Below are positions 11,084 to 28,228 of a stretch of 32,000 bases of DNA, one piece after another. The stretch is from NCBI GenBank assembly GCA_003144275.1, contig NJBF01000032.1:21142-53141 (forward strand). Direction: 5' to 3'. The notes below the pieces were generated by a model that made no database searches, was not told the DNA's origin, and worked only from the letters and a program-made list of their open reading frames with translations. Position 1 is the first letter of the stretch; each line of letters starts with the position of its first letter. Origin of the DNA: Candidatus Heimdallarchaeota archaeon B3_Heim (lineage in GTDB: Archaea > Asgardarchaeota > Heimdallarchaeia > Hodarchaeales > Hodarchaeaceae). Both the position numbers and the translations under genes were made by a program.

Positions 11084-12823
11084 CTAACCGTCTATTGACT
11101 TTTTTCTTCCTGCTTTTTTCCATTCCATATCGCGAAGCTCCCGATGAAGAACTTTGCCAATGGTCGATTTAGGCATCTCATCAATGAATTGGACATGACG
11201 TGGGATCTTAAACCGAGCAATCCTACCTTTACAAAATTCAATGATTTCTTCTTGTGACGCAGTTTCGTCATCCTTTAAGACAATAAATGCCTTGACAGTT
11301 TCGCCTTTAATCGAGTGAGGGATACCTACGACAGCCACTTCTTGGATTGCTGGATGTTCCAAAATGAGTTCCTCAACTTCTCGTGGATAAACTTTTAGGC
11401 CAGATACATCAATCATATTCTTTTTTCGTCCTGTGATGAAAAAATAGCCATCTTCGTCAATATAGCCAACGTCTCCAGTTAAGAAAAAACCATCCTCATT
11501 AAACACATACGCTGTTTCCTCGGGTTTTTTCCAATACCCTTTCATAACTTGAGGTCCTTTTAGTCCTATTTCTCCTTCTTCCCCTTGAGGTAGTTCTTTG
11601 TTTTGATCGTTCAAATCATAGATCTTAGCGTCGGTGTTTGGAACGGGAAGCCCAATGCTTCCAGGACGTTTATCGTTTGGAGTAAATGGATTTACATGAG
11701 TAACTGGAGAAGTTTCCGTTAATCCGTATCCTTCAACGACATTTGCTCCTGTCAATTCTTCAAAATTATACATAACTTGCTCGGGAAGGGGAGCAGCTCC
11801 GGAGAGACAGGCTCTGATTGATGTTAAATCGTAATCCTTTATGTCTTTGTGATATAATAATCCCACATATAAACTTGGTACTGCGTGGAAAACGGTTGGT
11901 TGATATTTATACAGCGTTTCTAGCAAGTCCTGTAACATCGGTCTTCCTGCTAATGGATCCGTGATAATAATCATTTTGGATGCTTGACTGACTGCAGTGA
12001 TCATACACACATTTAGAGCATAAATATGAAATAAGGGTAGGGCAACAACATAACATTCATTTCCGTAATTTACAGGAGGATAATAAAGAATATTTACCTG
12101 ATTTACATTACTAACAATATTGTAATGAGATAACATTGCTCCTTTAGAGACTCCAGTTGTGCCTCCTGTGTATTGAATTAATGCCAGATCTTCCACAGGG
12201 TTAATTTCAACATCCGGTACACTATCAGGATCTCCTTCCTCAATCATTTGGTTAAATGGAATATCTTTATCATGAATTCTCTTTCTTAAGGGGACTTTAC
12301 CTGTTATCATACCCAGGTATCTTTTAGAAAAAGTCATTTCATCATGCAATGAAGCCACAATGATATGATTCAGTTTTACAAGCTTCTTATCACGTAATTT
12401 TCTAACTCTATCATACGTGATATCAATAGTAATAATAGATTCAGCGCCTGAATCATTCAGTTGATATTCGAGCTCGTGATCTACATATTGCTTATTAAAT
12501 GGGACGATAGTTGCTCCCAATCGATTTATCGCAAAGAACGCAATGATAAATTGGGGACAGTTAGGAAGATAAATTCCGATTCGATCCCCTTTTTGTATCC
12601 CTAACTTTGTCAACGAATGAGCAAATCGCAATACACGATCCCAAAGTTCACCATATTTAATTTTTTTGTCAAAAAAGATAGTAGCGACATTATCAGGGCT
12701 AGCTATTGCTGATTCCTCTAAAAATTTATAGATAGGAAAATCTTCCGGAAGGTCAATGCTTTTGGGTATCTCCTCTGGCCATAGTTTGAACCAAAGCTTA
12801 TCTAATTGCTCAACTTGTTCCAT
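11084..12823 (-). CDS. fadD: Long-chain fatty-acid--CoA ligase (ANL family)
   Basis: QYTGGTTGVSKG, EGYGLTETSP, GSIGLPVPNT, FLTGDVG, GRKKNMI, VYPREVE, KSTIGKV. Confidence 0.9.
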   Translation of the reverse strand: MEQVEQLDKLWFKLWPEEIPKSIDLPEDFPIYKFLEESAIASPDNVATIFFDKKIKYGELWDRVLRFAHSLTKLGIQKGDRIGIYLPNCPQFIIAFFAINRLGATIVPFNKQYVDHELEYQLNDSGAESIITIDITYDRVRKLRDKKLVKLNHIIVASLHDEMTFSKRYLGMITGKVPLRKRIHDKDIPFNQMIEEGDPDSVPDVEINPVEDLALIQYTGGTTGVSKGAMLSHYNIVSNVNQVNILYYPPVNYGNECYVVALPLFHIYALNVCMITAVSQASKMIIITDPLAGRPMLQDLLETLYKYQPTVFHAVPSLYVGLLYHKDIKDYDLTSIRACLSGAAPLPEQVMYNFEELTGANVVEGYGLTETSPVTHVNPFTPNDKRPGSIGLPVPNTDAKIYDLNDQNKELPQGEEGEIGLKGPQVMKGYWKKPEETAYVFNEDGFFLTGDVGYIDEDGYFFITGRKKNMIDVSGLKVYPREVEELILEHPAIQEVAVVGIPHSIKGETVKAFIVLKDDETASQEEIIEFCKGRIARFKIPRHVQFIDEMPKSTIGKVLHRELRDMEWKKAGRKKSIDG

Positions 12824-12951
12824 AATATGATCAACACCGGGTGAAAGGGACTTTTACGCTATCAGTATGCTGTCTTATATCTTCCTTATCATTACAATAA
12901 GTACATTTCGTCTGTAAATTGCATTCACTATACTCAAATTTCAGCATAAAC

Positions 12952-12959
12952 TTTATAAT
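12952..12959 (+). promoter_or_regulatory. Candidate TATA box in the fadD/SBP divergent region
   Basis: AAAC-TTTATAAT about 100 nt upstream of ATG 13061; sequence motif only. Confidence 0.3.
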
Positions 12960-13060
12960 TCTCATAAGCGTATGACCTTGAATTGTTCTTAAAGAATCAA
13001 TTTAATTCCCTGACGAGTTATCAAAAGGGGATTGAAATAAAAAAGTAAATGTGATTTAAT

Positions 13061-14581
13061 ATGAGGAAAATTAGAACGATATTCTTGATATCTATATTCT
13101 TCGCCATGTTTCTATCTTCATCAATTGATATTGTGCCTGCTAAACCACAAGCCAGGCCAACAATCAAGATTGGTGGACTTGGGCCCTTATCCATTACTCC
13201 TGGAAAGGACATGAGAAAAGGGATTGAACTAGCGGTCGATGAGATTAATGATGGCGACGGTGTAGTCGTTGGTGGAACAGCGTATGACTTTGAAGTCTTT
13301 ATTGAAGATAATTCAGGCACCACTGGACTCCCTGATACTGACAAAGCCCTTACAGCACTATCAAAATTAACGGTTGATGATGAAGTAGTTGCGATAGTAG
13401 GCGGATTCCGAACTGAAGTTATGTGGGGTATTCAAGCAAACTTGGGTACGACTGGAACACCCTTCCTAGGTGTAGGATCCACTGCTCAGTTAATTTCTCC
13501 GTATTATTGGAGAGTTGGTCCATCCAACGGCAGTCTCCTTGCTTTTGGACTTATTGATCTCTATGGCTTTGGATTGTTGAATACAGGTGTTGAAAAAATT
13601 ACAATTATTCGTGAAGATGTTGCCTGGACTCCCCCCTTATCTAAACTGGTACAATTTTACCTTGGATATTATCTAGCAGCGATGAATGTTACTAGTAAAG
13701 CAATTGTATTTACTGACGACATTACCGTTAGTCAAGAAGCGGGTCTTGATGCTGTAGCTGCAGCAATGGCGAATGTGGGTGATGATGTTGATGCTCTGAT
13801 GCCTATATTCTCTGCTCCAGTAGGGAAATATGTAACGCAGGCTTGGTTTAATGATAATATGTCACAAATGTTAGCAGGCATTAATGTTGAAGCTCAATCA
13901 AGTACATACTTTGAAGAGACTGAAGGGGCTGCTTACGGCGAAATAACGATGCATCCAAACCCTCCAGATTTAACCCCCACAGCCAAAACTGCAGCCTACA
14001 AGACTGGATATGATGCTAAGTGGGATGAAGACCCGACCTATACTGCTACATTCAGCTATGATGCCGTTTTTATCTTGAAAGAGGCTATTGAACGTGCTGA
14101 TTCCTTTGATAAGGCTGATATTCAAACTGCATTGGCTGATACTGACATGGTTGGTGCAGCATGGCAATATAAGTTTACTAGCGAGCTCGGCCCTCAATTA
14201 ATATTAGCTGATTTCTTACCAAATGGAACCAAAGTCGTAGTACCAGTTCCAGGTACAGAAAGCACACCATACGGCAGTATTACGGTACATGATCTCTATA
14301 CCGCATCAACTGTAGGATTTAGAAACAAACCTTTCCCTACTACATACTTCACGCAATGGCAACAAAATGGAACCGTTAAAACTGTCTGGGGAGCGACTGC
14401 TGCAATTACAGATGATGCAGTTGCTTTTGCTACAGGACAGTCAGCTTTAGAATGGCCAATTGATCACGCTGAACATGGGTTTTCCCCAAAACAAGCCCCA
14501 GGATTTGAACTACCATTGATTATCCTAGTGCTAAGCGGATTTGCGGCGATAGTACGTACGAGGAAACGTAAGAAATTCTAA
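13061..14581 (+). CDS. Liv/HAAT-family ABC substrate-binding protein with signal peptide and C-terminal PGF-CTERM-like anchor
   Basis: IKIGGLGPLS, GIELAVDEIN, AIVGGFRTE, YDAVFILKEAIERA. Tail APGFE + hydrophobic helix + RTRKRKKF. No lipobox Cys. Confidence 0.9.
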   Translation: MRKIRTIFLISIFFAMFLSSSIDIVPAKPQARPTIKIGGLGPLSITPGKDMRKGIELAVDEINDGDGVVVGGTAYDFEVFIEDNSGTTGLPDTDKALTALSKLTVDDEVVAIVGGFRTEVMWGIQANLGTTGTPFLGVGSTAQLISPYYWRVGPSNGSLLAFGLIDLYGFGLLNTGVEKITIIREDVAWTPPLSKLVQFYLGYYLAAMNVTSKAIVFTDDITVSQEAGLDAVAAAMANVGDDVDALMPIFSAPVGKYVTQAWFNDNMSQMLAGINVEAQSSTYFEETEGAAYGEITMHPNPPDLTPTAKTAAYKTGYDAKWDEDPTYTATFSYDAVFILKEAIERADSFDKADIQTALADTDMVGAAWQYKFTSELGPQLILADFLPNGTKVVVPVPGTESTPYGSITVHDLYTASTVGFRNKPFPTTYFTQWQQNGTVKTVWGATAAITDDAVAFATGQSALEWPIDHAEHGFSPKQAPGFELPLIILVLSGFAAIVRTRKRKKF

Positions 14582-14582
14582 C

Positions 14583-14604
14583 TCCCCTTCCTCTTTTTTT
14601 TTTT
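14583..14604 (+). terminator. Pyrimidine tract / oligo-T (T11) after the SBP gene
   Basis: TCCCCTTCCTC followed by 11 T directly after stop 14581; typical archaeal intrinsic terminator. Confidence 0.55.
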
Positions 14605-14674
14605 ATTACTTAAGATATTTAAATTACCTGTATCTATTTGCTTTACCCTTAACATGTAAAAAAGGAGATTTTCT

Positions 14675-16060
14675 ATGAGTTTTCTTGACAAAGTTATCCC
14701 TCCAGACCTATTGCAGAAAGAAAAATGGATAATCTTAGGATTAACGATCTTTTTTTCACTTTGTGTAATATTTCCATTCATCGTTCAAATTTCAGATTCC
14801 GGGCTCAATTTTAATCTTAGATTAGATTCAGGAATAAAAGTTAATATCTTCGCAATTCAAACTGGTGCATTATATGCTTTATTGGCTATAGGTTTTTCGC
14901 TCATTTATGGTGTTGCCAAGCAATTAAAATTATCTCTTGGAGGATATTTTGTCATAGGCGCTTATTGCCAATTTTTCCTATTAGAAACAATGGAAATAGT
15001 TCCAGAAATCCGAACTGACATTGATGGACTTATGTTCCTCGGATTGGTTTTGTTACCTATCTTACTTATCATCGTTTTATTGGTGTTTACATTCACTTTA
15101 TTTTCATTTCGTGATTATTTATTAATTTTGGTAGCCCCAGTAATTTCTGGAGGGAGTATCATCCTTATTGATGGAAATTTAGTTGCAGGTTTTTATGTCG
15201 GCCTTGCAGCGATTATCATCAGCTTGACAGGATGGTATTTAGAACTACCGAAACGTGAGATAGCTCTCGGTTCATTTATTTATGCATTGTCCATGCCTGT
15301 TCTATATATTCTAGGCTTTCCGTCAATTTATTTTTCTTTGATGATATTATCAGTAGTATTTACCGCGTGTGTTGCTATGATTTCTGATCGCTATCTTTTG
15401 GATACCGTGCGACATTCACACATTTCTGTTATGATAGTCACATTTGCATTGGCTTTAATATTACAAAGTATTGTTCAGGTAGTGTATTTCCCCCAAAATG
15501 GAAATAATTTCACACGTTTTCAATCAATTGATTGGAGTTTCCCTGGAATCGTCCCCAAAACTGGAATCACGGTTATTTTTGGCGTTTCTATTCCCACAAT
15601 TCGATTAATCTCACTCATTTTTTCCGTTATTGCAGTAGTTCTTCTTTATATCTTTATTTATTATACTAAATTTGGAATTGCGTTACGTGCAGTTTCACAG
15701 GATGAAGAAGCGGCTGCACTAGTCGGTATTAATATCCGGAAGACTACTGCACTAGTTAGCGGAGTAGGTATGGGACTAGCGGGTTTTGCTGCAGTGTTGA
15801 CTTCCTCGTTTTCGGCTCGTCCTTTGTGGAATCCTTTCATGGGCTGGCCTGTATTAATATGGGCTATTGCAGTAGTAACCTTAGGCGGAATGGGTAGTCT
15901 CGGAGGAAGTATTATCGCAGCTTTCGTAATAGGTTACTCTGAAATTCTTGTGAGTACCATTGATCCAAGCTATTCAGTAGCCATTCCCTTCTTGATCGTC
16001 ATTCTTGTTATGATTATGAAACCTGAAGGACTGTTTGGCGAGAAAAAGGAGGTAGAGTAA
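14675..16060 (+). CDS. livH: LivH-type ABC permease with extra TM segments
   Basis: GALYALLAIGFSLIYGV, TKFGIALRAVSQDEEAAALVGIN, VTLGGMGSLGG, KPEGLFG. Confidence 0.85.
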   Translation: MSFLDKVIPPDLLQKEKWIILGLTIFFSLCVIFPFIVQISDSGLNFNLRLDSGIKVNIFAIQTGALYALLAIGFSLIYGVAKQLKLSLGGYFVIGAYCQFFLLETMEIVPEIRTDIDGLMFLGLVLLPILLIIVLLVFTFTLFSFRDYLLILVAPVISGGSIILIDGNLVAGFYVGLAAIIISLTGWYLELPKREIALGSFIYALSMPVLYILGFPSIYFSLMILSVVFTACVAMISDRYLLDTVRHSHISVMIVTFALALILQSIVQVVYFPQNGNNFTRFQSIDWSFPGIVPKTGITVIFGVSIPTIRLISLIFSVIAVVLLYIFIYYTKFGIALRAVSQDEEAAALVGINIRKTTALVSGVGMGLAGFAAVLTSSFSARPLWNPFMGWPVLIWAIAVVTLGGMGSLGGSIIAAFVIGYSEILVSTIDPSYSVAIPFLIVILVMIMKPEGLFGEKKEVE

Positions 16061-16062
16061 TA

Positions 16063-17526
16063 ATGGACTGGTATGAGTTTTTTGAAGATATATGGGATGA
16101 AATTAAGGATCGTGGTTATTACATTTCAGGAATAGCTCTTTTAATTTTTCTACCCTCTATTCTTGGCGCATCTGATACTCCGAGTATTCCTATTCTAACC
16201 GATATTTATGCAATTGTTGGTAATATTGGATTGTTTGGGTCAACAAACTTCTTTTTGATAATCCTTTCACTTTGCGCGATTTGGGGAATATTTGCTGCCT
16301 CGTGGGATATTTTATCTGGATATACTGGGCAGATTAGTTTTGGTCATGCGATTTTTTTCGGATTAGCTGCTTATGTTGGGTATTGGACCTCGACAGGTTT
16401 TCAAGTTGATCCCCTTTTAGTTGGGCTTTTAGGAACAAGATTTAGCCTCGCTCCAGCGGTAGCTTTAATATTTAGTGGTTTTATATGTGCTTTACTTGCT
16501 GTATGTATTGGTATTCTCGCCTTGAGAGTTAAAGGGCCTTATCTTGCTTTAGTGACACTAGTAATACCCTTAATTGTTGCTTCATTATTCAAACTTGAAA
16601 TCTTTTACACTTTAACAGGAGGGGATCATGGATTCCCAAATGTACCTGATGTTTTAACACCTACCGGTATTCTGGACATTGATACACTGAACTTTTACAT
16701 TTTTTCAATAAGCGTTCTTTTAGTATCAGTAGGTATAATGATGCTAATAGCCTATTCACGGTATGGATTGGTTTTTCAATCGATCAGGGAAGACGAGGAT
16801 GCAGCGGAATCTCTAGGTATTAATCTGGCTTTTTATAAAATACTGGCATTCGCAATAAGTGCGTTCTTTGCTGGAATTGCAGGAGGAATGTATGCTCAAT
16901 ATCGGAGTATTGCGGTACCTTCTTTCTTTGATACGTCTTTTTCATTTTCGGTTATTATTATGGCCGTGATTGGGGGGATTGGGTCTATTTCCGGAGGAGT
17001 TGTAGGAGCTTTTCTTCTCACAATTTTGATAGAAATCCTTCTTGGTGACATTTTTCCATCATCTGTTCTTGAGGGAGTAGATATTCTGGCTTTTGGTTTA
17101 TTGCTGGTAATTACTCTCCGATATATGCCCTATGGAGTTGCACGTGCAAAGAGTGATCAAAAGAAAGCTATTGTATTCGGATTGTTATTTGCACTATCTT
17201 GGGCAATAATTCCCATTAGCAATTTTTTTGAATTTCTTTCTTCAATTTCTATAGGTAACATTATATTATTCCTAGCTATGGTTTTGATCACAATCCTAAC
17301 ATTACCAGCAATTCCAGTTTTCTTTGTGAGTGAGATAGTTGGTCTTTTTGTGCTCGAAGGATTAATGGGTCTTAGTCTTTCACCGAAAGCTCTTATAAAG
17401 GCGAAGTTTCTTATATATTGTATTGCAGGCATTCCATTTGCATATTATCTTCCTAAAGTATTTAAAATCCTCCGACTAAGATTCTGGGGTGTATGGCCTT
17501 CTGTTGGGAGATATGAACCAGAATAA
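16063..17526 (+). CDS. livM: LivM-type ABC permease with hydrophobic C-terminal extension
   Basis: SWDILSGYTGQISFGHA, LRVKGPYLALVTL, SIREDEDAAESLGIN, AVIGGIGSISG. Confidence 0.87.
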   Translation: MDWYEFFEDIWDEIKDRGYYISGIALLIFLPSILGASDTPSIPILTDIYAIVGNIGLFGSTNFFLIILSLCAIWGIFAASWDILSGYTGQISFGHAIFFGLAAYVGYWTSTGFQVDPLLVGLLGTRFSLAPAVALIFSGFICALLAVCIGILALRVKGPYLALVTLVIPLIVASLFKLEIFYTLTGGDHGFPNVPDVLTPTGILDIDTLNFYIFSISVLLVSVGIMMLIAYSRYGLVFQSIREDEDAAESLGINLAFYKILAFAISAFFAGIAGGMYAQYRSIAVPSFFDTSFSFSVIIMAVIGGIGSISGGVVGAFLLTILIEILLGDIFPSSVLEGVDILAFGLLLVITLRYMPYGVARAKSDQKKAIVFGLLFALSWAIIPISNFFEFLSSISIGNIILFLAMVLITILTLPAIPVFFVSEIVGLFVLEGLMGLSLSPKALIKAKFLIYCIAGIPFAYYLPKVFKILRLRFWGVWPSVGRYEPE

Positions 17527-17544
17527 TTAACATGGTGAATGAAT

Positions 17545-18327
17545 ATGACTACTACATTTTCAGAAAAACAAGTTTCGAATTCGCAACGATCTGTACTCAT
17601 TGAAGTACAGAACTTAAGTAAACATTTTGAAGGCCTTAAAGCTGTGGATGATGTAAACTTCAAAATAAAAGCGGGGGAGCTTATCGGAATCATTGGCCCT
17701 AATGGAGCTGGAAAAACTACGCTATTTAATCTTCTCACGGGATTTCTCAAACCTACAAAAGGAAAACTCATTCTTGATGAGAAGAAAAATATTGCAGGCT
17801 TGAGCCCCCATAAAATCGCAAAACTTGGAATAACTAGAACATTTCAGCTTGTTCGTCCCTTCAAATTGTTAAATGCTTTGGAAAATACAACTGTTCCTCA
17901 CATTCCTAAATCGAAATTAACTAGATCTTCCACTCTTAAAAATAAAGCAACTTGGTCATTAATAACAGTTGACTTAGCTGAAAAGAAAAATTATCCAGCT
18001 TTTATCTTACCACATGGCGATTTAAAAAGACTTGATTTTGCTCGTGCTATGGCTGTTCAACCTCGAATGTTATTGCTAGATGAACCGTTCGCAGGGTTGA
18101 GTGTTGAAGAAGCTTTCAGGGTAGAACGTGTCATACGTGAGGCAAATGAAAAAGGTATGACTATTGTTATTGTAGAACATAAACTAAAAATTCTTATGCG
18201 GTTAGTTGAGAGAGTAATCGTCTTACATCAAGGAAAATTAATAGGGGAAGGAACTCCAAAAGAAATTGCTAATAATGATGAGGTTATTACAGCTTATCTT
18301 GGGACAGAGGCTAAAGACTATGAGTGA
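17545..18327 (+). CDS. livG: LivG-type ABC ATPase
   Basis: GPNGAGKTT, GITRTFQ, LPHGDLKR, LLLDEP, IVEH, VITAYLG. ATG 17545 is better spaced from the GGTGA RBS than 17539. Confidence 0.9.
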   Translation: MTTTFSEKQVSNSQRSVLIEVQNLSKHFEGLKAVDDVNFKIKAGELIGIIGPNGAGKTTLFNLLTGFLKPTKGKLILDEKKNIAGLSPHKIAKLGITRTFQLVRPFKLLNALENTTVPHIPKSKLTRSSTLKNKATWSLITVDLAEKKNYPAFILPHGDLKRLDFARAMAVQPRMLLLDEPFAGLSVEEAFRVERVIREANEKGMTIVIVEHKLKILMRLVERVIVLHQGKLIGEGTPKEIANNDEVITAYLGTEAKDYE

Positions 18328-19099
18328 AACTAATAAACAATCATCCACCCTATTTGAATTACAAGAGGCATCCGTACATTATGGCAGAGCAATTGCTATC
18401 GCGTCTGTTTCGTTAACAGTTGAAAAAGGAGAACTAGTAGCCGTTATCGGACCTAATGGAACTGGAAAAACAACCCTTCTTAGAGCAATTTCAGGTTTGG
18501 TAGAGCTCGAAAGAGGAAAAGTATTCTTTGAGGGAAAGAAAATACTGGAGTCAACGAAATCAGAATTCAGAGTCATGGGAACAAATAAATCATTAAAACC
18601 ACATAGAATCGTGGAATTAGGCATAATCCACTGTCCAGAACGTAGAAGATTGTTCACTGAATCTAGTGTAAGAGAAAATCTAATATTAGGAGCATATACG
18701 AATAAGGATAAATTAAAAGTCGAACAAACTCTTGAATACGTTTTGAAACTCTTTCCAGTCCTTGAAAAACGATTGAATGAAAAAGCAGGTAATTTTTCAG
18801 GAGGGGAACAACAGATGATTGCAATTGGACGATCACTTATGGGAAACCCGAAATTATTACTACTTGATGAGCCTAGTCTGGGACTTGCTCCAATGGTTAA
18901 GAGAAATATAGTTGAAGCAATTCGCAAAATTCAAGAAAGAGGAACTACAATTCTTCTAGTAGAACAGGATGCGAGTATAGCCTTGGAAATTTGTGATCGA
19001 GGATATCTCCTTGAAGATGGGAGATTGGAACTCGAGGGCTCTCGTGATGAATTGTTAAAGAATCCCTATGTGAAAGAAGCCTATCTCGGCATTGCATGA
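18320..19099 (+). CDS. livF: LivF-type ABC ATPase
   Basis: GPNGTGKTT, CPERRRLF, FSGGEQQMIAIGR, LDEPSLGLAP, VEQD, VKEAYLG. ATG 18320 overlaps the livG stop. Confidence 0.9.
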   Translation: MSETNKQSSTLFELQEASVHYGRAIAIASVSLTVEKGELVAVIGPNGTGKTTLLRAISGLVELERGKVFFEGKKILESTKSEFRVMGTNKSLKPHRIVELGIIHCPERRRLFTESSVRENLILGAYTNKDKLKVEQTLEYVLKLFPVLEKRLNEKAGNFSGGEQQMIAIGRSLMGNPKLLLLDEPSLGLAPMVKRNIVEAIRKIQERGTTILLVEQDASIALEICDRGYLLEDGRLELEGSRDELLKNPYVKEAYLGIA

Positions 19100-20220: not shown

Positions 20221-21192
20221 ATGGATGTTTTCGATAAGAGTATTCTCTTCAGCTTAGCAAAATCTTGCCGTATTTCATTTTCTCAGCTAGCTTCAGATCT
20301 TAACTTACCAGCGAATGAAGTAGGAACGCGAATCCAGCGACTCGTGAATGATCATACAATCCTCAAATTCACGGTGGCACTTAATCCCTATCTTTTACGT
20401 TTACACAATGTAATTATTATTTTTCGATCACTCACGCCCTTAGAGCTCAATCGATTGACATTACTTGGAATACATTCAGCTATTGAACATATTTCCATAG
20501 GAACAGCTCACGAAGGGTTTGCTTATGCCAGATATAGTAATAAGGAAGAATTTTTAGAATTAGCAGAACACTTCCAGCAATTTCACAGATCGTTCGAGGA
20601 ATTACACTTATATCCCGTCGTTCCTCTAGTGAATTCAGGTATTTCTCCTCCTACTCAAGATATCGTCTCTCTGGAAAAAGAAGATTGGTTAATTTTAGCT
20701 CATCTAAGAGAACAAGGACGACTTTCCCTTCAAGAACTTTCAAAACGGATTGAAATTGATGTGGAAGTCATAAATGAACGGCTGGATTATCTCCGACATT
20801 TTAATCTCATCCACGAAACAATTCAAATAAACCCTGTAAAATCTCTAAAAGAAACATTAACAATGTTTCAATGCGAATTTACGATTTTGAATCATTTAAT
20901 TCAGCAGGAAATAATGCAAGAAATTGACACCTTAGCACATTTTTGGCCCATCAGTTCATTTCGTTCAGCTGATAAACCAGTCTTATTCTTAAGTTTTTAC
21001 TGTTCGTCTTATACCGAAGTAGAAAAAATACAAGCACATTTAACTGAATTACCAGGAGTAAAGAGTATAATTAAGATTATGGGTGGCACAACATATTATT
21101 TCACTGATATACGAGACGAACTCATAGAAGAAAAACGAAGTCACGGTTGGTTCTCACCAGAAAGGTGGGTAACCGATTCCACTGGAAATTAA
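20221..21192 (+). CDS. Lrp/AsnC-family regulator with two tandem HTH+RAM units
   Basis: Unit 1: DKSILFSLAKSCRISFSQLA. Unit 2: EDWLILAHLREQGRLSLQELSKRI. Each is followed by a RAM-like region. Confidence 0.8.
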   Translation: MDVFDKSILFSLAKSCRISFSQLASDLNLPANEVGTRIQRLVNDHTILKFTVALNPYLLRLHNVIIIFRSLTPLELNRLTLLGIHSAIEHISIGTAHEGFAYARYSNKEEFLELAEHFQQFHRSFEELHLYPVVPLVNSGISPPTQDIVSLEKEDWLILAHLREQGRLSLQELSKRIEIDVEVINERLDYLRHFNLIHETIQINPVKSLKETLTMFQCEFTILNHLIQQEIMQEIDTLAHFWPISSFRSADKPVLFLSFYCSSYTEVEKIQAHLTELPGVKSIIKIMGGTTYYFTDIRDELIEEKRSHGWFSPERWVTDSTGN

Positions 21193-21320: not shown

Positions 21321-21956
21321 TTATAGATCAACTAGTGGGTCATTTTCCTTTGTAGAATGTATTGATACTACTTCTACTATTGTTTGTCTTACTAAGTCAG
21401 ATGTTTCATGGTCTAGATGAATATTGAGTTGATCAATCACCTCTGAATTAATGAAATCGAGCATTCCCAAACCTACTACTGCACCAGTACGAACTACAAA
21501 AGATGTATCTTTCTGAAGCGTTTCCAACAAGATTTTTTCAGCTCCTTGTACTTTTAAGCGTCCTAAGGCTCTTGCACACCGATCCCTAATCTGGATGCTC
21601 TTTTCATTCATGCACTCAATGAGTTTTTCGGAGAGTATTTCACTAAGTGGTGCTTCCGAGAAACTTAGGGCTGAGATTGTATTACTTCGAACCATATCCA
21701 CAGAGTCTGATAACAGAGGCTCCAAGAGGGGAACAATTATTTCTCCTTCAAGAAAGACTAAAGTCATCACTACTTCTGCACGTACTTCAGGTGCTGGGTC
21801 GGAAAGCGCTTTAACTAGTCTAGAGTGAAGATCCATCGGAATATCAGTTAACGGGATTTCCATTCTACCTATTTTTCTAACCGCTTCGGCTCGTATAAAT
21901 GAACTAGTTGCCTCTAGTTCGTCTAAAAGTTTCGCAAGTTCCTTTTTTTTTGACAT
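21321..21956 (-). CDS. HEAT/PBS-lyase repeat protein
   Basis: About six repeats: IRAEAVRKIG, VRAEVVMTL, VRSNTISAL, IRDRCARALG, VRTGAVVGLG, VRQTIVEV. Confidence 0.85.
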   Translation of the reverse strand: MSKKKELAKLLDELEATSSFIRAEAVRKIGRMEIPLTDIPMDLHSRLVKALSDPAPEVRAEVVMTLVFLEGEIIVPLLEPLLSDSVDMVRSNTISALSFSEAPLSEILSEKLIECMNEKSIQIRDRCARALGRLKVQGAEKILLETLQKDTSFVVRTGAVVGLGMLDFINSEVIDQLNIHLDHETSDLVRQTIVEVVSIHSTKENDPLVDL

Positions 21957-22010: not shown

Positions 22011-22060
22011 TTACCTCCTAAAAATTCATCTTTTGTTGCAATTTTACTTGTAGGAGGTAA
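22011..22060. repeat. 10-bp perfect inverted repeat with 30-nt spacer
   Basis: TTACCTCCTA (22011-20) and TAGGAGGTAA (22051-60); begins immediately after the stop of the Cys-rich gene. Confidence 0.45.
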
Positions 22061-22387
22061 TTAGGAACTTTGACTAGAATTTGTACCTGGATTTGAAGAT
22101 AGTTTTAGTGAACAGTTAGGACAATTAGGGGGATGTCCCGTTAATTCACAGATGAATGATTGTTTGTCATTAGATGCACATTGTACCAAGTTCTGAAAAT
22201 AGGTACATTCAAAGTCGTAATTAGCTTGATACAGATGATCAAAGGAAAGAGGTGAGCCGACCTTGTAATATGGGCACTTGGGTGGACAGGATCGTAAAAA
22301 CTCTTTAAACACTACACATAAGAATAAACATTCTTTTGTGCCCTGATCTATCACTTGATGTTGGCAAGGACCCATAACACTTTTCAT
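22061..22387 (-). CDS. Small Cys-rich protein with two internal 4-Cys modules (putative metal or Fe-S binding)
   Basis: 10 Cys in 108 aa; the ATG is 5 nt after the luxC stop. Confidence 0.7.
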   Translation of the reverse strand: MKSVMGPCQHQVIDQGTKECLFLCVVFKEFLRSCPPKCPYYKVGSPLSFDHLYQANYDFECTYFQNLVQCASNDKQSFICELTGHPPNCPNCSLKLSSNPGTNSSQSS

Positions 22388-22392
22388 TCCCG

Positions 22393-23856
22393 TTAAAGAA
22401 CAGATTTTTCATCGGTAATCCATTTACACATTCGACGTAATGGTTCAATAGCATCTTGGGGGGTTGCCATACTAGCATTAGCTGCAAAACCTAGGGATAC
22501 TACTCTCTGCACCCCATAAAGTGGTAAAATATCACGAATTTGTAATTTGAGAGATTCAGGGAAAATACCAACAGTTTGGGTATAAGAATTGACTGATTGC
22601 AAGGCTGTGTCAATTGTGTCTACAGGAACAAGATTTACTACACGACTACACAATCGATGAGAAAAATCGACTGGTTCATCGAATTGAGAAACAATTACTG
22701 CACCTTCATTAGACTTCCCTCCATAGATGTGATAAAAGTCATCATCAAGACGGATTCCCTCTATATCATCTTTTAGAGTTTCATTAAAAATCTTAGGAGG
22801 TGTAGAAACATGTGAAGGAAGGTTAACAAGGGCAGAATAGAGTATTTTTCCGAAGGTATTCAGTCGTTCAATTCCATCCTCAGTTGTCCCTGACTGCACA
22901 TACATAATGCGTGAATTTAAACAGGCTTCTTGATTGAATGCTCCCACATCTATAGCAGCTCTTTGAGCAACCGTATAAAGAGTCTGGTCATCCTGAAAAG
23001 CATCACGACCGATTATTGAGGTCGAAATTTTAGGGTCAAAGGTAATTAGATCAATTCCTGGTTGAAGGTATCGGCTAATATATTTAATTGAATTAAAACC
23101 GCCCCAGGCAATAATTTTTTCAATATTCTCAGGACGATAGAATTTTTCTTCAAAGTGAGTATCCCCCCCTCGCCAATAAAGGACACTGCAATGCTTTGTT
23201 ATGGGGTGTTGGGGTTCCATTTCCATCATTGTCTGAATCAAAGCGGTAGCAGTTAGTGGATCATTGGAAGGTAGTTTGAAAATCGCGTCACAGCGTGTAC
23301 CACAACTTCTAATGAGGGAGGCTGCAGAAACCGTTGGTACATTACCTGCAATAATATGGACTGTTCGGGAGCCAAATGCTCGAATAGCAATAGTTCTACC
23401 ATCCTCCATCTTTGTAGGTACCCAGCTTTCAAGATATTCTATGCCTATCCTTTTATCAAGCATCTCACGAATATTGGATGGATGAAATAGCATAGGTAAT
23501 GTTTGATATGTAGTATGAAGTACTTCAGGTGTTAAACCTGAGGCTTGACATGCAAGCTCATAAGCTGCTTGTAGATACTCATTTTCTTTTAAAATTAAAC
23601 GTTGACCCAAATCATGGAGAAAAGTTATTATCTCTTCAATAGATAGATCATAAAGATCTTTCATTTTTGATGGATCAGAGAGGGAAATTTGGTTTGCATA
23701 TTTCTTTGCGCTCGGAGTAAGAAATTTAGCCCCGTTTCTTCCACCGAAAGTCTCCGAATAATCCTTTATCAGCTTTCCCCGAAGTAAGATGGGGATCTCA
23801 AATACCTCAGTATCCATCGTCTTGACAAGTGTTGATTGCATTAGATTGTCCTCCAA
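22393..23856 (-). CDS. luxC: LuxC-family acyl-CoA/acyl-protein reductase
   Basis: HIIAGNVP, FKLPSNDP, YWRGG, IIAWGG, FDPKISTSII, FNQEACLNSRI (catalytic Cys position), QTVGIFP, GVQRV. Start is TTG 23856 or ATG 23841. Confidence 0.85.
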   Translation of the reverse strand: MEDNLMQSTLVKTMDTEVFEIPILLRGKLIKDYSETFGGRNGAKFLTPSAKKYANQISLSDPSKMKDLYDLSIEEIITFLHDLGQRLILKENEYLQAAYELACQASGLTPEVLHTTYQTLPMLFHPSNIREMLDKRIGIEYLESWVPTKMEDGRTIAIRAFGSRTVHIIAGNVPTVSAASLIRSCGTRCDAIFKLPSNDPLTATALIQTMMEMEPQHPITKHCSVLYWRGGDTHFEEKFYRPENIEKIIAWGGFNSIKYISRYLQPGIDLITFDPKISTSIIGRDAFQDDQTLYTVAQRAAIDVGAFNQEACLNSRIMYVQSGTTEDGIERLNTFGKILYSALVNLPSHVSTPPKIFNETLKDDIEGIRLDDDFYHIYGGKSNEGAVIVSQFDEPVDFSHRLCSRVVNLVPVDTIDTALQSVNSYTQTVGIFPESLKLQIRDILPLYGVQRVVSLGFAANASMATPQDAIEPLRRMCKWITDEKSVL

Positions 23857-23870
23857 AGAAAAGGAAGAAG

Positions 23871-25298
23871 TTACTCTTCCTTTGTATCGAGAAGGTAATC
23901 GATAAACGAGTCATATGCCTCTTGGCTACCAGCACAGCTAATTTTATCGTCACCATTATTCTTTTCACTAATACGTTGTATTTTCTTTTCTAACCAGGGA
24001 CCAGTTCGACCACAGGAACATTGATCATCATCCCAGTGGATTGTAACCTCGTCGCCTGTCAGAAAACCACCCCAATAACTTTCTGTTAATAGGTCATAAA
24101 ATCCAAAGCGACCAGTTTGCACACCTGTTCGTGGCAACACTTGCCCACCAATATCAAAAACGAATGGAATAAAGTGGGGATAAATATGGTAATGATTTTG
24201 ATCACAAGAAGGCATATAACCAGTACTCTCTGTCATACCATACCCATCACGGATGTTCTTAACACCATAAAAGGTACAAATTCTTTCGTACCAATCTTCA
24301 GGAACAACTTGTCCTTTCAATCCACCTCCAGTTACTAAAGCGGAATTGGAGGCAAAAACATTACTCAACCCTTGTTTTTCTCCTTCTAATGCTGCATCAA
24401 TCATCGAGGTAAGTGTCCCCAACATAAATACCTGACGACCTCGATAATTCTTCACCATATTATCAAAGAAAGCAGCCATATATTTAGGACGATTCCGTTT
24501 TAACCTAATTAGTTCTCCTCTATTGTAGCTTAAAGCTTTAAGCATTTGAAGTTTGCCCAACTCTCCTTTTGCCTTTGCTGCTTGCAGTCTGCCGGCCAAG
24601 GACATGAAATCCGCAGATAAATATCCAGGAATTGCGGTATGATATTCCTCCTTAGAACCTGCTAGCATGGGACCGAAGCGACTTAAAATTCTCTGAGCTA
24701 GTTGTCTACCATCGGCAAAACTAGGAAAAAAAACTGGCATTTTTGTTTTGTGAGGATTAACCCCCGTAAGAACTTCAATGAATAAATAAAACGCATTTTT
24801 GAAGTTTTCCATCTCGCTTTCGCTACGGGGGAGAAAACTCAGCTTTCCTGTTGTTCCCGTTGAATGGACAATTTGCAGATCTGATTGTTTTTCAATTGCT
24901 TCCAACCAGGAATCAATCGAGTTACAGTTGTCTGTCTTCATTGCTGATAAATCGTGTGTTGTTAATTTATCTAACCAAACAGTAAGCTTATCAAATTTCT
25001 TTTTCTCAATGAAAGCTAAGGGATAACTCTTGTAGACAGTATGGAGGAACAGAATTGGAGCTAAATCATTCAAAGTTTTGATTTCAGTTATATTTTGTTC
25101 ATCTGCGAGCTTCTTCAGAGCTTTAATACGTGGATAAAACCAGTCAAAGCGTTTTTGAGCACCAGCTAATTGAATTTGCTGTACAAAATCTGTTTCAAGA
25201 CTGAACAATTCGTCATTGGTGGCGTGAACCAGCGATTGCGGATTTTGAAACATTTCTGATTGTCTTTCCCCCGACAGTTTACTTGTTGATAAAACCAT
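23871..25298 (-). CDS. luxE: LuxE-like acyl-protein synthetase (adenylate-forming)
   Basis: HSTGTTGKLSF, TGGGLKG, YGMTE, RFGFYDLL, FLTGD, CSCGRTG, C-terminal KISCAG; 14 nt upstream of luxC. Confidence 0.78.
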   Translation of the reverse strand: MVLSTSKLSGERQSEMFQNPQSLVHATNDELFSLETDFVQQIQLAGAQKRFDWFYPRIKALKKLADEQNITEIKTLNDLAPILFLHTVYKSYPLAFIEKKKFDKLTVWLDKLTTHDLSAMKTDNCNSIDSWLEAIEKQSDLQIVHSTGTTGKLSFLPRSESEMENFKNAFYLFIEVLTGVNPHKTKMPVFFPSFADGRQLAQRILSRFGPMLAGSKEEYHTAIPGYLSADFMSLAGRLQAAKAKGELGKLQMLKALSYNRGELIRLKRNRPKYMAAFFDNMVKNYRGRQVFMLGTLTSMIDAALEGEKQGLSNVFASNSALVTGGGLKGQVVPEDWYERICTFYGVKNIRDGYGMTESTGYMPSCDQNHYHIYPHFIPFVFDIGGQVLPRTGVQTGRFGFYDLLTESYWGGFLTGDEVTIHWDDDQCSCGRTGPWLEKKIQRISEKNNGDDKISCAGSQEAYDSFIDYLLDTKEE

Positions 25299-25468
25299 TT
25301 TCAGTAACCTCTGATACCAATACCGAGAATGCTTTAAATATTCAAAATCAGGCTAAGAATCGTTTATTCGCATCATTCCTTATAAACTCCTTTTAAGAGA
25401 AATACTAAATTAAGAATAAAATCATTTTATATTCATAAGGTGAAGACAATATTCATCCATGAGCAAGA

Positions 25469-28228
25469 ATGACAGTAGCTCAAAAAGATGAAAAAAACCT
25501 CTGGAAACGTTATGAATCGGCCCTTGAAGATTACAGCTTAACACGCGATCTCGATGATTTGCTCACTATATTCAAGAAAATTATTAGATCTTCATCACCT
25601 AAACCATCTATTGCGTTACTTACCAACATAGCTGATCGTCTCGTCAAATTCAAACTCTATGACGAAGCGAAACTTGTTTTTGGAATGATATTACGCAAAG
25701 AGAGCCAACATCGTGAGACATGGAAAGCCCTTTCTTCTCTCTATTTTAAATTAAAGGATAATAGCAAGGCAGAGTTTTGTTTACAGAAGTACTACTCATT
25801 AAAGGGAGGAAGTGTATTAATAAGTTCCTCTGTTAAGAACCGCTTAGCGAGTGCAGGCAAGCTTAAAACATTACCTACTAACCAACCACTAGGTCTTCAA
25901 AAAGCCAAACAGATAGAAGTTCATGCACCGAAGAGTGTATTAACTTTAGATGAATTTACGAGGCGCTTCAAATTAAAAAATGTATCTATCCCCACGATTA
26001 TAAAGAAAATCGTTCATTTTGCTCAACATCAAATAATTGATTATAGAATCTTTGATAAACAGAGCGGAGAATTTGGAGACGATCTACACTTTCTTAGTAA
26101 TGGCCAAATCATAAAATATCTAACTGATAGAAATATAAAACGGCTTTACAAATTTCAAGAAGAAGCAATCCACAAAATTTTATCGAACCAAGATGTGTGT
26201 ATTGTTGCACCAACTGGTAATGGGAAAACAGAAGCCTTTCTTCTCCCAGCTCTTTTGAAAATCAAAGATTTTGCTGGATATGGCGTTCAACTTCTTATAA
26301 TTTATCCTCAGAAGGCCTTAGCCAAAGATCAATTGAGGAAGATTACTGAAGTTGCCTCTCTCCTAAATCTTAAGGTAGAGGTGTTTGATGGAGATACATC
26401 TCATTATCGTCGTAAGAAGATTTTTTCTGATCCACCAGAAATCTTGATCACTAATCCTGATATTCTTCACTATCATCTTGGAATTGGAAAGAATTCAGGA
26501 TTTTTCCAGAATTTAATCAGTAATTTGAAAATAATCATTTTAGACGAGGTTCACACGTATTCAGGTACTTTTGGAAGCAATATACACTTCATCCTTCGTC
26601 GATTGGAACGAATATTGGATCAACAAGTGCAATTCATCACAGCTTCTGCTACGGTAGCTAATCCCCAGACTTTCACAAGTCGCCTATTAAATCGACCAAT
26701 CACCGTGATTGAGTGCAAAAATGGACGAAGAGGACGATTACATTTTTTGATGGTCGCTCCATTTGATGGTATGTCTACTTTTGATGGAATGGCTAGTTTA
26801 TTGAATTCAATTAAACAGTATGGTAAAATTTTAGCATTTCAAGATTCACATAGAAGTGCAGAATATTTATTTCAAAGATTACGGGGATCTTCCAACAGGG
26901 TAGGAATCCATAGAGCTGGTTTAACAAAGAAGATACGAGAAGAAGTTGAAACACAATTTAGAGAAGGAGAAATCGATCTTTTAATCGCCACTCCGACATT
27001 GGAGTTGGGAATTGATATTGGTGAGCTGGAAATAGTAGTGACACCTCCAATATCAGTAAATCGGGCTATTCAACGAATTGGTCGGGCTGGGAGAAAAGGA
27101 CAGGATGCTATAGCGATCATCCACCTTAATGCTGATGATCCTATAAGTAATTATTATTACAACAATCCTGAACGGTATTTTCAAGAAGTAGAAGATGTTT
27201 TTTTTGATCCAACAAATCTAAATGTCGTTGATCATCAACTATTGGCTGCAGCTCTTGATCATCCGTTAGGAATTAATGAATTCCCTGAAAATGTACCAGC
27301 AGTAGAAGAATTAGTAAATAAAAACTTCCTTCAAAGATTTAACAATGATATTTTCGTCCCAACAGAGCAAGGAATCGAAAAAGTACGGAAATATTCAATC
27401 AGAGGGACTAATCACGAAATACAAATCAAAATTCGTGGAGGTAGACTCATCGGAAAACGGACAATGCCGATTGCGATGTTTGAACTATATCCAGGTGCTT
27501 ATTATTTAGCAGGCGGTACTAGGTATCGAGTTTTTAATTACAGCTTCAACGGCTTTCGTGGATGGGCCGAACTGACAAAGCCAAAAAATGTCTGGGGACA
27601 AACTTTTCCTTTAACAAAATTGAAACCTCAGATTTTAGAGGTTCAGAAGCCGTTAACTTCAATATATGGAATAGAAGTGGGATTAGTTACAACTAAAATT
27701 CTTCAGTCTGTTATTGGATATACACTACAAACATCAGCTGGAACCGAAACAAAGAAATTACGAGATCCATTACATTATCCATCCCAATCCAGAGGGTTGT
27801 TATTTCAAATTCCATTATCTTCCCTAGATGTGCAATTAGATCAGAATAGATTTAGCAATTCCTTACATACCATCGTACATGTCCTGCTACATGCAAGTTT
27901 GCCTTTTATTGGCGGACAGATTCATGAAATTGGGGGATTAACTTTATTACCCCAAGGATATATACTTATATTTGATCAAGCAACAGGTTATGGAATATGT
28001 GAGATGTTAATGGGCCATTTATCTGAACTCTTTACCCGAGCGCGTGTAATTCTTGAATGTGAATGTCCAGATGGTTGTCCCAAATGTTGCTTTTTATCTC
28101 GCTGCAGTAAAAATAATACATCATTAGACAAAGATGGTGCCCGAAAAATTCTTGATTATATCATACAACAAGATGTAACAATTCCCCTTGGAATGGATTA
28201 TAATGAATGTAGGATTTTTATTTCTTAA
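25469..28228 (+). CDS. SF2 DEAH helicase with C-terminal DUF1998 Zn domain (MrfA/YprA/Hrq1 family) and N-terminal TPR-like region
   Basis: APTGNGKT, LDEVH, SAT, HRAGL, TPTLELGIDIG, QRIGRAGR, and C-terminal CECPDGCPKC. Confidence 0.9.
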   Translation: MTVAQKDEKNLWKRYESALEDYSLTRDLDDLLTIFKKIIRSSSPKPSIALLTNIADRLVKFKLYDEAKLVFGMILRKESQHRETWKALSSLYFKLKDNSKAEFCLQKYYSLKGGSVLISSSVKNRLASAGKLKTLPTNQPLGLQKAKQIEVHAPKSVLTLDEFTRRFKLKNVSIPTIIKKIVHFAQHQIIDYRIFDKQSGEFGDDLHFLSNGQIIKYLTDRNIKRLYKFQEEAIHKILSNQDVCIVAPTGNGKTEAFLLPALLKIKDFAGYGVQLLIIYPQKALAKDQLRKITEVASLLNLKVEVFDGDTSHYRRKKIFSDPPEILITNPDILHYHLGIGKNSGFFQNLISNLKIIILDEVHTYSGTFGSNIHFILRRLERILDQQVQFITASATVANPQTFTSRLLNRPITVIECKNGRRGRLHFLMVAPFDGMSTFDGMASLLNSIKQYGKILAFQDSHRSAEYLFQRLRGSSNRVGIHRAGLTKKIREEVETQFREGEIDLLIATPTLELGIDIGELEIVVTPPISVNRAIQRIGRAGRKGQDAIAIIHLNADDPISNYYYNNPERYFQEVEDVFFDPTNLNVVDHQLLAAALDHPLGINEFPENVPAVEELVNKNFLQRFNNDIFVPTEQGIEKVRKYSIRGTNHEIQIKIRGGRLIGKRTMPIAMFELYPGAYYLAGGTRYRVFNYSFNGFRGWAELTKPKNVWGQTFPLTKLKPQILEVQKPLTSIYGIEVGLVTTKILQSVIGYTLQTSAGTETKKLRDPLHYPSQSRGLLFQIPLSSLDVQLDQNRFSNSLHTIVHVLLHASLPFIGGQIHEIGGLTLLPQGYILIFDQATGYGICEMLMGHLSELFTRARVILECECPDGCPKCCFLSRCSKNNTSLDKDGARKILDYIIQQDVTIPLGMDYNECRIFIS

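Follow-up and report, generated by a model that had tools for sequence, protein, structure and literature searches.

What do a luxE-like and a luxC-like gene do in an archaeon when no luciferase gene lies beside them? The question arises from a stretch of 32,000 nucleotides, hereafter called the window, of Candidatus Heimdallarchaeota archaeon B3_Heim (contig NJBF01000032.1, positions 21,142 to 53,141), which is part of a 3.95-Mb metagenome-assembled genome (MAG) with a completeness of 94%. The closest relatives bear the submitter labels Hodarchaeota, Hodarchaeales, and Heimdallarchaeota. Three co-directional open reading frames (ORFs) on the minus strand encode a 475-residue adenylating enzyme, a reductase of the LuxC family, and a 108-residue protein containing 10 cysteines. 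A preliminary description of this DNA had interpreted these ORFs, all of which are present where it placed them, as a luxE-luxC pair followed by a cysteine-rich gene, and had proposed that the pair reduces acids to aldehydes. Our analysis indicates that the synthetase and the reductase probably constitute a LuxE/LuxC-type carboxylic acid reductase that has two components and needs no carrier, its catalytic steps and cofactor being predicted ones. The genes of the unit are the following.

23871..25298, minus strand: long LuxE-like adenylating enzyme (acyl-protein synthetase type), 475 residues, predicted from the ORF, ANL motifs, and an AlphaFold2 model.
22393..23841, minus strand: LuxC-family acyl-thioester reductase, 482 residues from an ATG codon, matching PF05893 and preceded by GGAGG 8 nt 5' of the ATG.
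22061..22387, minus strand: Cys-rich small protein, 108 residues, 10 cysteines, based on the ORF and an alignment.

Assignment of the reductase to the LuxC family is firm. The sequence matched Pfam LuxC (PF05893) with 166.1 bits against a cutoff of 21 (E = 1.5e-48; model positions 3 to 401 of 401), and no other Pfam family, ordinary aldehyde dehydrogenase (ALDH) included, was matched at an E value of 0.01 or less. The single significant solved relative was LuxC of Photobacterium phosphoreum (7xc6_A; E = 1.2e-32). Alignment of the two proteins paired the cofactor-domain motif HIIAGNVP with HLLAGNVP and FNQEAC with YDQQAC, the latter containing the active-site cysteine of P. phosphoreum LuxC (C286 by chain count in 7xc6_A, C296 in PMC9157457), which receives the acyl group (PMC9157457). 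The corresponding residue, C307 as numbered from the ATG start, was invariant in 22 relatives. The earlier recognition of a luxC-like gene by its NQEAC cysteine is borne out by these results, which place the protein with LuxC and not in an ordinary ALDH clade. The NCBIfam equivalog of luminous LuxC (NF052251) gave 155.3 bits against a cutoff of 750. By sequence, the reductase is a member of the LuxC family and not an orthologue or equivalog of the LuxC of luminous bacteria.

The synthetase is, on the combined evidence of sequence and a predicted structure, a member of a separate, unannotated long LuxE-like family located on the LuxE side of the ANL enzymes. Mean column identity was 55% over 20 diverse members, in which the motifs HS(T/S)GT(T/S)GKLS, YGMTE, and GD were invariant (HSTGTTGK, YGMTE, and TGD in the window protein). 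Also invariant in these 20 relatives were K328 (GGGxK328), R442, K452, C365, C427, C429, and C455, the last being part of DDKISCAG. The adenylation motifs and the C-terminal cysteine (KISCAG) noticed previously are thus present and conserved. The GGGLK328 loop aligned column for column with 234-GGGWK-238 of LuxE (7xc6_E). Lysine K238 is reported to be essential, to be specific to the LuxE loop, and to replace the C-terminal-domain lysine of PaaK and other ANL enzymes (PMC9157457).

Modeling of the synthetase with AlphaFold2 led to a mean predicted local distance difference test (pLDDT) score of 84 and a predicted template modeling (pTM) score of 0.84. The best structural matches of this model were three Swiss-Prot LuxE proteins (E = 9e-15), the alignments covering query and target in full, whereas PaaK proteins matched solely via their N-terminal domain (residues 1 to 330 of ~440). 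Foldseek comparison with PaaK-type structures afforded E values down to 3e-12, and PaaK1 ranked first in the search of the PDB, which contains LuxE only as a partly resolved structure. The mobile C-terminal subdomain of ANL enzymes is missing from the synthetase, only 45 residues being found past the CxCG motif, and the protein differs in this respect from the two-domain architecture of PaaK, whose C-terminal subdomain provides the catalytic lysine (K422 in PaaK1). Because the GGGLK loop is of the LuxE type, the C-terminal subdomain is missing, and the best full-length structural matches are LuxE proteins, the synthetase is placed with LuxE; its specific features are those of LuxE and not those of the phenylacetate-CoA ligase clade. 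The segment surrounding C455 (residues 451 to 460) formed the second-lowest block of the model, with a pLDDT of 59, lower values being obtained for the C-terminal tip (53) and the disordered N terminus (47). This segment may resemble the flexible Cys364 tail of LuxE.

In comparison to LuxE from 7xc6, the additional length of the synthetase is distributed among ~43 residues before the P-loop, ~47 residues between the P-loop and the GGGxK loop, and ~12 residues at the C terminus. The second of these stretches contains helices 229 to 243 and 260 to 285 in the AlphaFold model. The ~100 extra residues and the helical insertion, both reported in the preliminary description, are therefore real, but they are no peculiarity of the archaeon, since they are conserved in the bacterial members, numbering in the hundreds, and are thus a trait of the family. 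The proposal that the enzyme belongs to a subfamily different from that of Vibrio LuxE is supported.

Members of the long LuxE-like family were detected in no fewer than 215 species, most of them bacterial, by a pattern scan limited to one genome per species. A LuxC gene was adjacent in 63 of the 79 loci that were fetched, in Asgard archaea, Chloroflexota, Pseudomonadota, and Actinomycetota, indicating that the tight linkage observed in the window recurs in independent loci and exceeds chance. The synthetase gene precedes LuxC (E-C) in archaea, Proteobacteria, and Actinobacteria, whereas Anaerolineales have the order C-E. Bacterial pairs annotated in RefSeq as "hypothetical protein" (the synthetase) and "acyl-CoA reductase" (its partner) belong to the same long LuxE-like family, with 35 to 38% identity over 91 to 98% of the length and LuxC immediately 3'. 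Examples are provided by plasmid pP7a of M. avium (WP_014941048/WP_014941047) and by Caballeronia sp. Sq4a (WP_248324786/WP_248324263). These pairs differ from the archaeal unit by the addition of alcohol dehydrogenase, short-chain dehydrogenase/reductase (SDR), aldo-keto reductase, cytochrome P450, or luciferase-like monooxygenase genes and by the lack of the Cys-rich gene. An aldo-keto reductase gene followed LuxC in 9 bacterial loci, and 16 loci had an SDR gene close by; on the Caballeronia plasmid, LuxC was directly followed by an NAD(P)-dependent alcohol dehydrogenase gene. TetR and AraC regulators, P450s, TonB-dependent receptors, major facilitator superfamily transporters, and acyl-CoA dehydrogenase were also encoded in the vicinity. 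This set of bacterial neighbors fits an acid-to-aldehyde-to-alcohol route acting on hydrophobic compounds.

Two further arrangements were observed in bacteria. A luciferase-like monooxygenase gene (PF00296) was present near the long LuxE-like gene in nine loci, mostly from Novosphingobium (L045, L054, L058, L061, L065, L069, L072, L075, and L084; see also L088:8001-12399), eight of which had no LuxC in the fetched stretch. A pyrroloquinoline quinone dehydrogenase gene was likewise adjacent in L088. In Anaerolineales (L001/L002:6507-14931, L027-L042, and L052), LuxC and LuxE-like genes were followed by a gene for a conserved protein of 182 to 194 residues belonging to no family (17 loci). Further on came genes for a metallo-beta-lactamase-fold protein and then for an AAA_10-like protein of 604 to 613 residues and a TraG/TrwB-like ATPase of 818 to 833 residues (12 to 13 loci).

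In the reaction that we propose, the 475-residue enzyme would adenylate a carboxylic acid with ATP by means of its P-loop, the YGMTE and TGD motifs, and K328. The acyl group would then be transferred to a thiol, most likely that of the synthetase's own Cys455 on a flexible C-terminal tail, and handed over to Cys307 of the LuxC-type reductase. Reduction of the thioester with NAD(P)H by LuxC would free the aldehyde, which would probably be processed by an enzyme encoded elsewhere. Direct hand-over between the two proteins is suggested by the near-obligatory adjacency of their genes and by their co-evolution. As to the substrate, a lipid-type hydrophobic acid, either fatty or isoprenoid-derived, is our tentative suggestion. 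An alcohol, an ether, a wax, or a signal may be proposed as the end product, but only as a guess.

This system resembles LuxC-LuxE of P. phosphoreum (PDB 7XC6; PMC9157457) in that two proteins are encoded by adjacent genes, in that the ANL-type synthetase has no C-terminal subdomain and carries the GGGxK lysine loop and a C-terminal cysteine, and in that the catalytic cysteine and AGNVP motif of an ALDH-fold reductase can be aligned. Unlike in luminous bacteria, luxA, luxB, luxD, and luxG are not found in the window, and an additional Cys-rich gene follows the pair in the order E-C. In contrast to Photobacterium LuxE, the archaeal synthetase is ~100 residues longer, owing to an N-terminal extension and the conserved helical insertion, and identity is ~12 to 13% in structural alignments. 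The clan, the fold of the N-terminal domain, the P-loop, YGMTE, and CxCG are common to the synthetase and the PaaK family (PaaK1, 2Y27; BT_0428, 4R1L; ClxA, 9S3L), but the synthetase differs by the missing C-terminal subdomain, the LuxE-type lysine loop, and a LuxC partner in place of paa genes. Carboxylic acid reductases (CARs) of the Nocardia/Mycobacterium type (A-T-R) convert an acid to the aldehyde at the expense of ATP and NADPH. The same net reaction is proposed here, although CAR combines a phosphopantetheinyl carrier domain and an SDR-type reductase in one polypeptide chain, whereas the archaeal system is made up of two proteins, of which the reductase has an ALDH fold, and dispenses with a carrier domain. 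LuxCE provides the precedent for both the chemistry and the two-protein logic; what is new is the distinct unannotated synthetase family, the clade-specific occurrence in archaea, and a third gene that is an orphan of this lineage.

Inspection of the ORF list and Pfam matches confirmed that none of luxA, luxB, luxD, and luxG is present in the window, and the pair stands alone, without luciferase or LuxD. Extending the search for luxAB-like monooxygenases to the genome revealed three luciferase-like genes (PF00296), which exist but are all located on other contigs and are not linked to the module. The sole match to the LuxD family (PF02273) was marginal (23.6 bits against a cutoff of 20.3, over 142 of 294 model positions) and was also on another contig. 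Linked luxA and luxB together with luxD, as expected for a bioluminescence operon, are therefore lacking.

How did the pair come to be in this archaeon? Among 400 Asgard genomes, the long LuxE-like synthetase was detected in 17 of the 21 genomes of one family-level clade (family f1) and in none of the 379 others, and the orthologous LuxC was likewise found in 17 of the 21. In the unrooted LuxC tree, the 18 archaeal rows occupied one side of a branch (99 by the Shimodaira-Hasegawa-like approximate likelihood ratio test [SH-aLRT]), and their nearest neighbors were a proteobacterial group comprising Rhizorhabdus, Rhizomicrobium, Thauera, Cupriavidus, and Pseudomaricurvus. The archaeal rows grouped with the same proteobacteria with 100% support in the unrooted synthetase tree, in which archaeal monophyly was not rejected (support of 77), and the two trees were congruent. 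Since the trees are congruent and the range of the pair is narrow in archaea and broad in bacteria, a single old transfer from bacteria into the ancestor of this Hodarchaeales clade is the most likely origin, in agreement with the acquisition from bacteria considered previously. The direction of the transfer is deduced from the distribution alone, because the trees are unrooted and distant bacterial paralogues, tried as outgroups for the synthetase, fell inside the ingroup. The GC content of the three-gene unit (0.38 to 0.40) is within the range of the window (0.31 to 0.41), indicating that the unit is not compositionally foreign.

Duplication, with two or more copies, was found in several MAGs. 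One MAG with the submitter label Odinarchaeota (locus tags ACFFD4_) showed a marked expansion, with at least seven long LuxE-like paralogues (P0042-P0046, P0051, and P0053) that were 48 to 51% identical to the window synthetase; its label conflicts with the phylum survey, which confines the family to one clade. Other Asgard families, f20 among them, carried only a distant LuxC-like gene coding for 560 to 590 residues (e.g., G152:C174:15557-16342), which matched the LuxC alignment with E values of 1e-33 to 1e-41. It was present in 15 of the 135 genomes of one such family, where it had no long LuxE-like partner.

The Cys-rich gene is a conserved third gene that was most likely added in the archaeal clade and is specific to that lineage. 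By coordinates, it was located directly 3' of luxC in 15 of the 18 genomes containing luxC, and this linkage was kept across synthetase subclades only ~50% identical to each other. Within Asgard archaea, the Cys-rich family occurred in 19 of the 21 genomes of family f1 and in none of the 379 others. The number of copies varied from one to eight per genome and included unlinked paralogues, indicating that the family is not dedicated to the module. When 1.84 billion representative proteins were searched exhaustively with a profile, only 58 members and no informative relative were retrieved, and a word-index search for homologues retrieved three close relatives only. The protein matched no Pfam or NCBIfam family and contained no hydrophobic segment. 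Residues C24, C34-P-x2-C38, E-C61, and C80 were invariant in the alignment, and C92 was nearly so. As a cytosolic protein with many conserved cysteines, the product probably binds a metal, most simply as zinc or an iron-sulfur (Fe-S) cluster. The AlphaFold2 model obtained from an 11-row alignment was unusable (mean pLDDT of 35), and the ESM Atlas feature search led at best to unnamed viral clusters (0.85), with named matches at chance level. Prediction of a complex between LuxC and the Cys-rich protein scored 0.00, an outcome equivalent to no answer, which counts neither for nor against an interaction.

One unlinked paralogue of the Cys-rich gene (G000:C11:83099-83323; L094:1492-1797, minus strand) converges on a gene for a protein of 445 to 474 residues, an arrangement that recurs in a metagenome contig (L091:131-469). 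The neighbor has an N-terminal hydrophobic segment and sub-threshold matches to BAAT_C (E = 0.26 and 0.0036), a domain of acyl-CoA thioesterase-type alpha/beta hydrolases. The Cys-rich family may thus pair with acyl-handling enzymes more generally. Comparison of this 445-residue protein with the products of genes located beside LuxE/LuxC in L019 and L049 revealed no similarity.

Several observations weigh against a LuxE/LuxC-type reductase acting on a lipid-type acid. The synthetase did not reach the curated threshold of Pfam LuxE (PF04443; 24.9 bits) and was not matched even at an E value of 10, so that the earlier identification of this protein as LuxE did not hold in a hidden Markov model (HMM) search; profile PF04443 had no match in the whole genome either. 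The only Pfam match of the synthetase was to AMP-binding, below threshold, and NCBIfam provided none, although 11 of the 20 relatives matched Pfam LuxE at an E value of 1 or less, the best value being 2.2e-7. The HMM alignment to LuxE ends at residue 341, short of C455 and R442, the residues to be compared with C364 and R355 of LuxE. The family profile is as near PaaK (4r1l; E = 3.5e-4) as LuxE (7xc6_E; E = 6e-4), so that a CoA-ligase mode retains some probability. Some bacterial members devoid of a LuxC neighbor adjoin the luciferase-like monooxygenases described above, indicating that the synthetase can serve other partners. Beyond the three genes, no archaeal neighbor recurs across subclades, and the archaeal neighborhood therefore does not constrain the substrate. 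The transfer scenario, for its part, relies on trees that are unrooted. Our literature search found no paper characterizing any member of the synthetase subfamily and none joining LuxC or LuxE with Asgard archaea.

These points have to be set against the alternatives. The same enzymes and chemistry could be applied to a carboxylate that is small or aromatic, for instance an aryl acid, an acid derived from a nucleobase, or part of a cofactor. The solved relatives nearest in sequence include the aryl-acid ligases PaaK, ClxA, NatL2, and AjiA1, and no lipid gene is conserved beside the archaeal module. We nevertheless consider such a substrate rather unlikely, since the neighbors in the nearest bacterial clade (P450, acyl-CoA dehydrogenase, TonB receptor, and AraC) are typical of the metabolism of hydrophobic compounds, and neither a riboswitch nor a cofactor gene came to notice in the archaeal loci, for which no RNA-family search was made. 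It is improbable that the 475-residue enzyme is a PaaK-like ligase whose acyl-CoA product is released and then reduced by LuxC in the manner of an ordinary acyl-CoA reductase, the two enzymes being linked by no acyl-protein relay. In addition to the profile comparison, the CxCG motif common to the synthetase and PaaK-like ClxA (9s3l), the reported acceptance of acyl-CoA by LuxC in vitro (PMC9157457), and the RefSeq name of the partner would fit this scheme. However, the synthetase lacks the C-terminal subdomain that PaaK-type ligases employ in the thioester-forming step and has instead a LuxE-type lysine loop and an invariant C-terminal cysteine, and the linkage and co-evolution with LuxC suggest direct hand-over.

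The remaining alternatives assign a function to the Cys-rich protein. The synthetase could S-acylate the Cys-rich protein, making it the acyl carrier or acceptor of a protein-acylation or carrier-dependent system. In favor of such acylation, acyl-protein synthesis is what defines LuxE enzymes (PMC9157457), and within the archaeal clade the Cys-rich gene shows a tight and conserved linkage to the pair. We give this scheme very little credence, as bacterial members have no such gene, the adjacent copy is missing in 3 of the 18 archaeal genomes with luxC, unlinked paralogues are present in one to eight copies per genome, and structure and family searches offered no clue as to the function of the protein. 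Scarcely more credible is a three-component system in which a bacterial acid reductase would be adapted to archaeal physiology by the Cys-rich protein, a metal- or Fe-S-binding subunit with the role of electron donor, acyl acceptor, or regulator, and in which the aldehyde would feed fatty-alcohol or ether-type lipid synthesis. The two-component LuxE/LuxC-type reductase remains our preferred reading.

Seven acyl-CoA dehydrogenase genes were identified in the genome, together with one acyl carrier protein (ACP)-like ORF (G000:C73:7117-7302, 82 residues) matching the phosphopantetheine-binding family with 52.8 bits; no match to a true ketosynthase was found in the genome. Acyl substrates are therefore plausible and are more likely scavenged or catabolic than synthesized de novo. 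The contrast drawn previously with a host expected to use isoprenoid lipids is accordingly weaker than implied, in view of the acyl-CoA dehydrogenases and the ACP-like ORF.

These results define a large family that has been left as "hypothetical protein" in RefSeq. Long LuxE-like enzymes appear to be the partners, missing until now, that activate the acid for many non-luminous LuxC reductases of bacteria and of one Asgard clade, which is of value for annotation and provides biocatalysis with a source of carboxylate reductases that need no carrier. In Hodarchaeales, an Asgard group proposed as closest to eukaryotes, they reveal an acyl-reducing module that is near-universal, restricted to one clade, probably of bacterial origin, and coupled to a Cys-rich gene specific to the lineage. 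Should a fatty acid prove to be its substrate, the module would contribute a concrete piece to the discussion of bacterial-type lipid metabolism among archaea related to eukaryotes. A three-component system feeding lipid synthesis would, if true, bear on the entry of acyl-lipid chemistry into the archaeal ancestors of eukaryotes.

The layout of the unit includes three additional features.

22393..23856, minus strand: alternative luxC ORF in the ORF list, 487 residues from a TTG codon.
22011..22060, minus strand: 10-bp inverted repeat (hairpin) directly 3' of the Cys-rich gene, with a predicted minimum free energy of -18.9 kcal/mol (z = -2.7 versus shuffled sequences).
25299..25468, no strand assigned: AT-rich 170-nt intergenic region common to the divergent helicase gene, presumed to be a promoter region.

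The TTG codon at position 23856 overlaps the GGAGG sequence, which is 8 nt before the ATG codon at position 23841. The latter is more likely to be the start codon of luxC, which would leave a gap of 29 nt between the synthetase gene and luxC and lead to a protein of 482 residues; the gap of 14 nt mentioned in the preliminary description applies if translation starts at TTG. The gap of 5 nt between the luxC stop codon and the Cys-rich gene was correct. The hairpin, which possibly marks the end of the transcription unit, is followed by a HEAT-repeat gene on the same strand. A scan for sigma-70 promoters and terminators detected fewer promoter-like sites than in shuffled sequences, but the result is not meaningful for an archaeon. 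The search of sequencing runs listed DNA runs sharing at most 0.25 of the words, from marine-sediment and cold-seep metagenomes, and no RNA run.

On the other side of the intergenic region, a DEAD/DEAH helicase of 919 residues (25469-28228, plus strand), whose orthologues also contain MZB (PF09369), is divergent from the module. Synteny of this gene extends to nine related genomes, probably reflecting shared ancestry rather than shared function. At the opposite end, the module is flanked by genes for the 211-residue HEAT-repeat protein (21321-21956, minus strand) and for a 323-residue protein with two AsnC/MarR-type winged-helix domains (20221-21192, plus strand), both of which are positionally conserved in the closest subclade only (7 loci each). 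Farther away, positions 11084-19099 harbor genes for a 579-residue AMP-binding acyl-CoA synthetase (minus strand), a metallo-beta-lactamase-fold protein, and a Liv-type ATP-binding cassette (ABC) importer composed of a binding protein, two permeases, and two ATPases. The transporter and AMP-binding genes were considered as parts of the module and rejected, their synteny being limited to the closest relatives.

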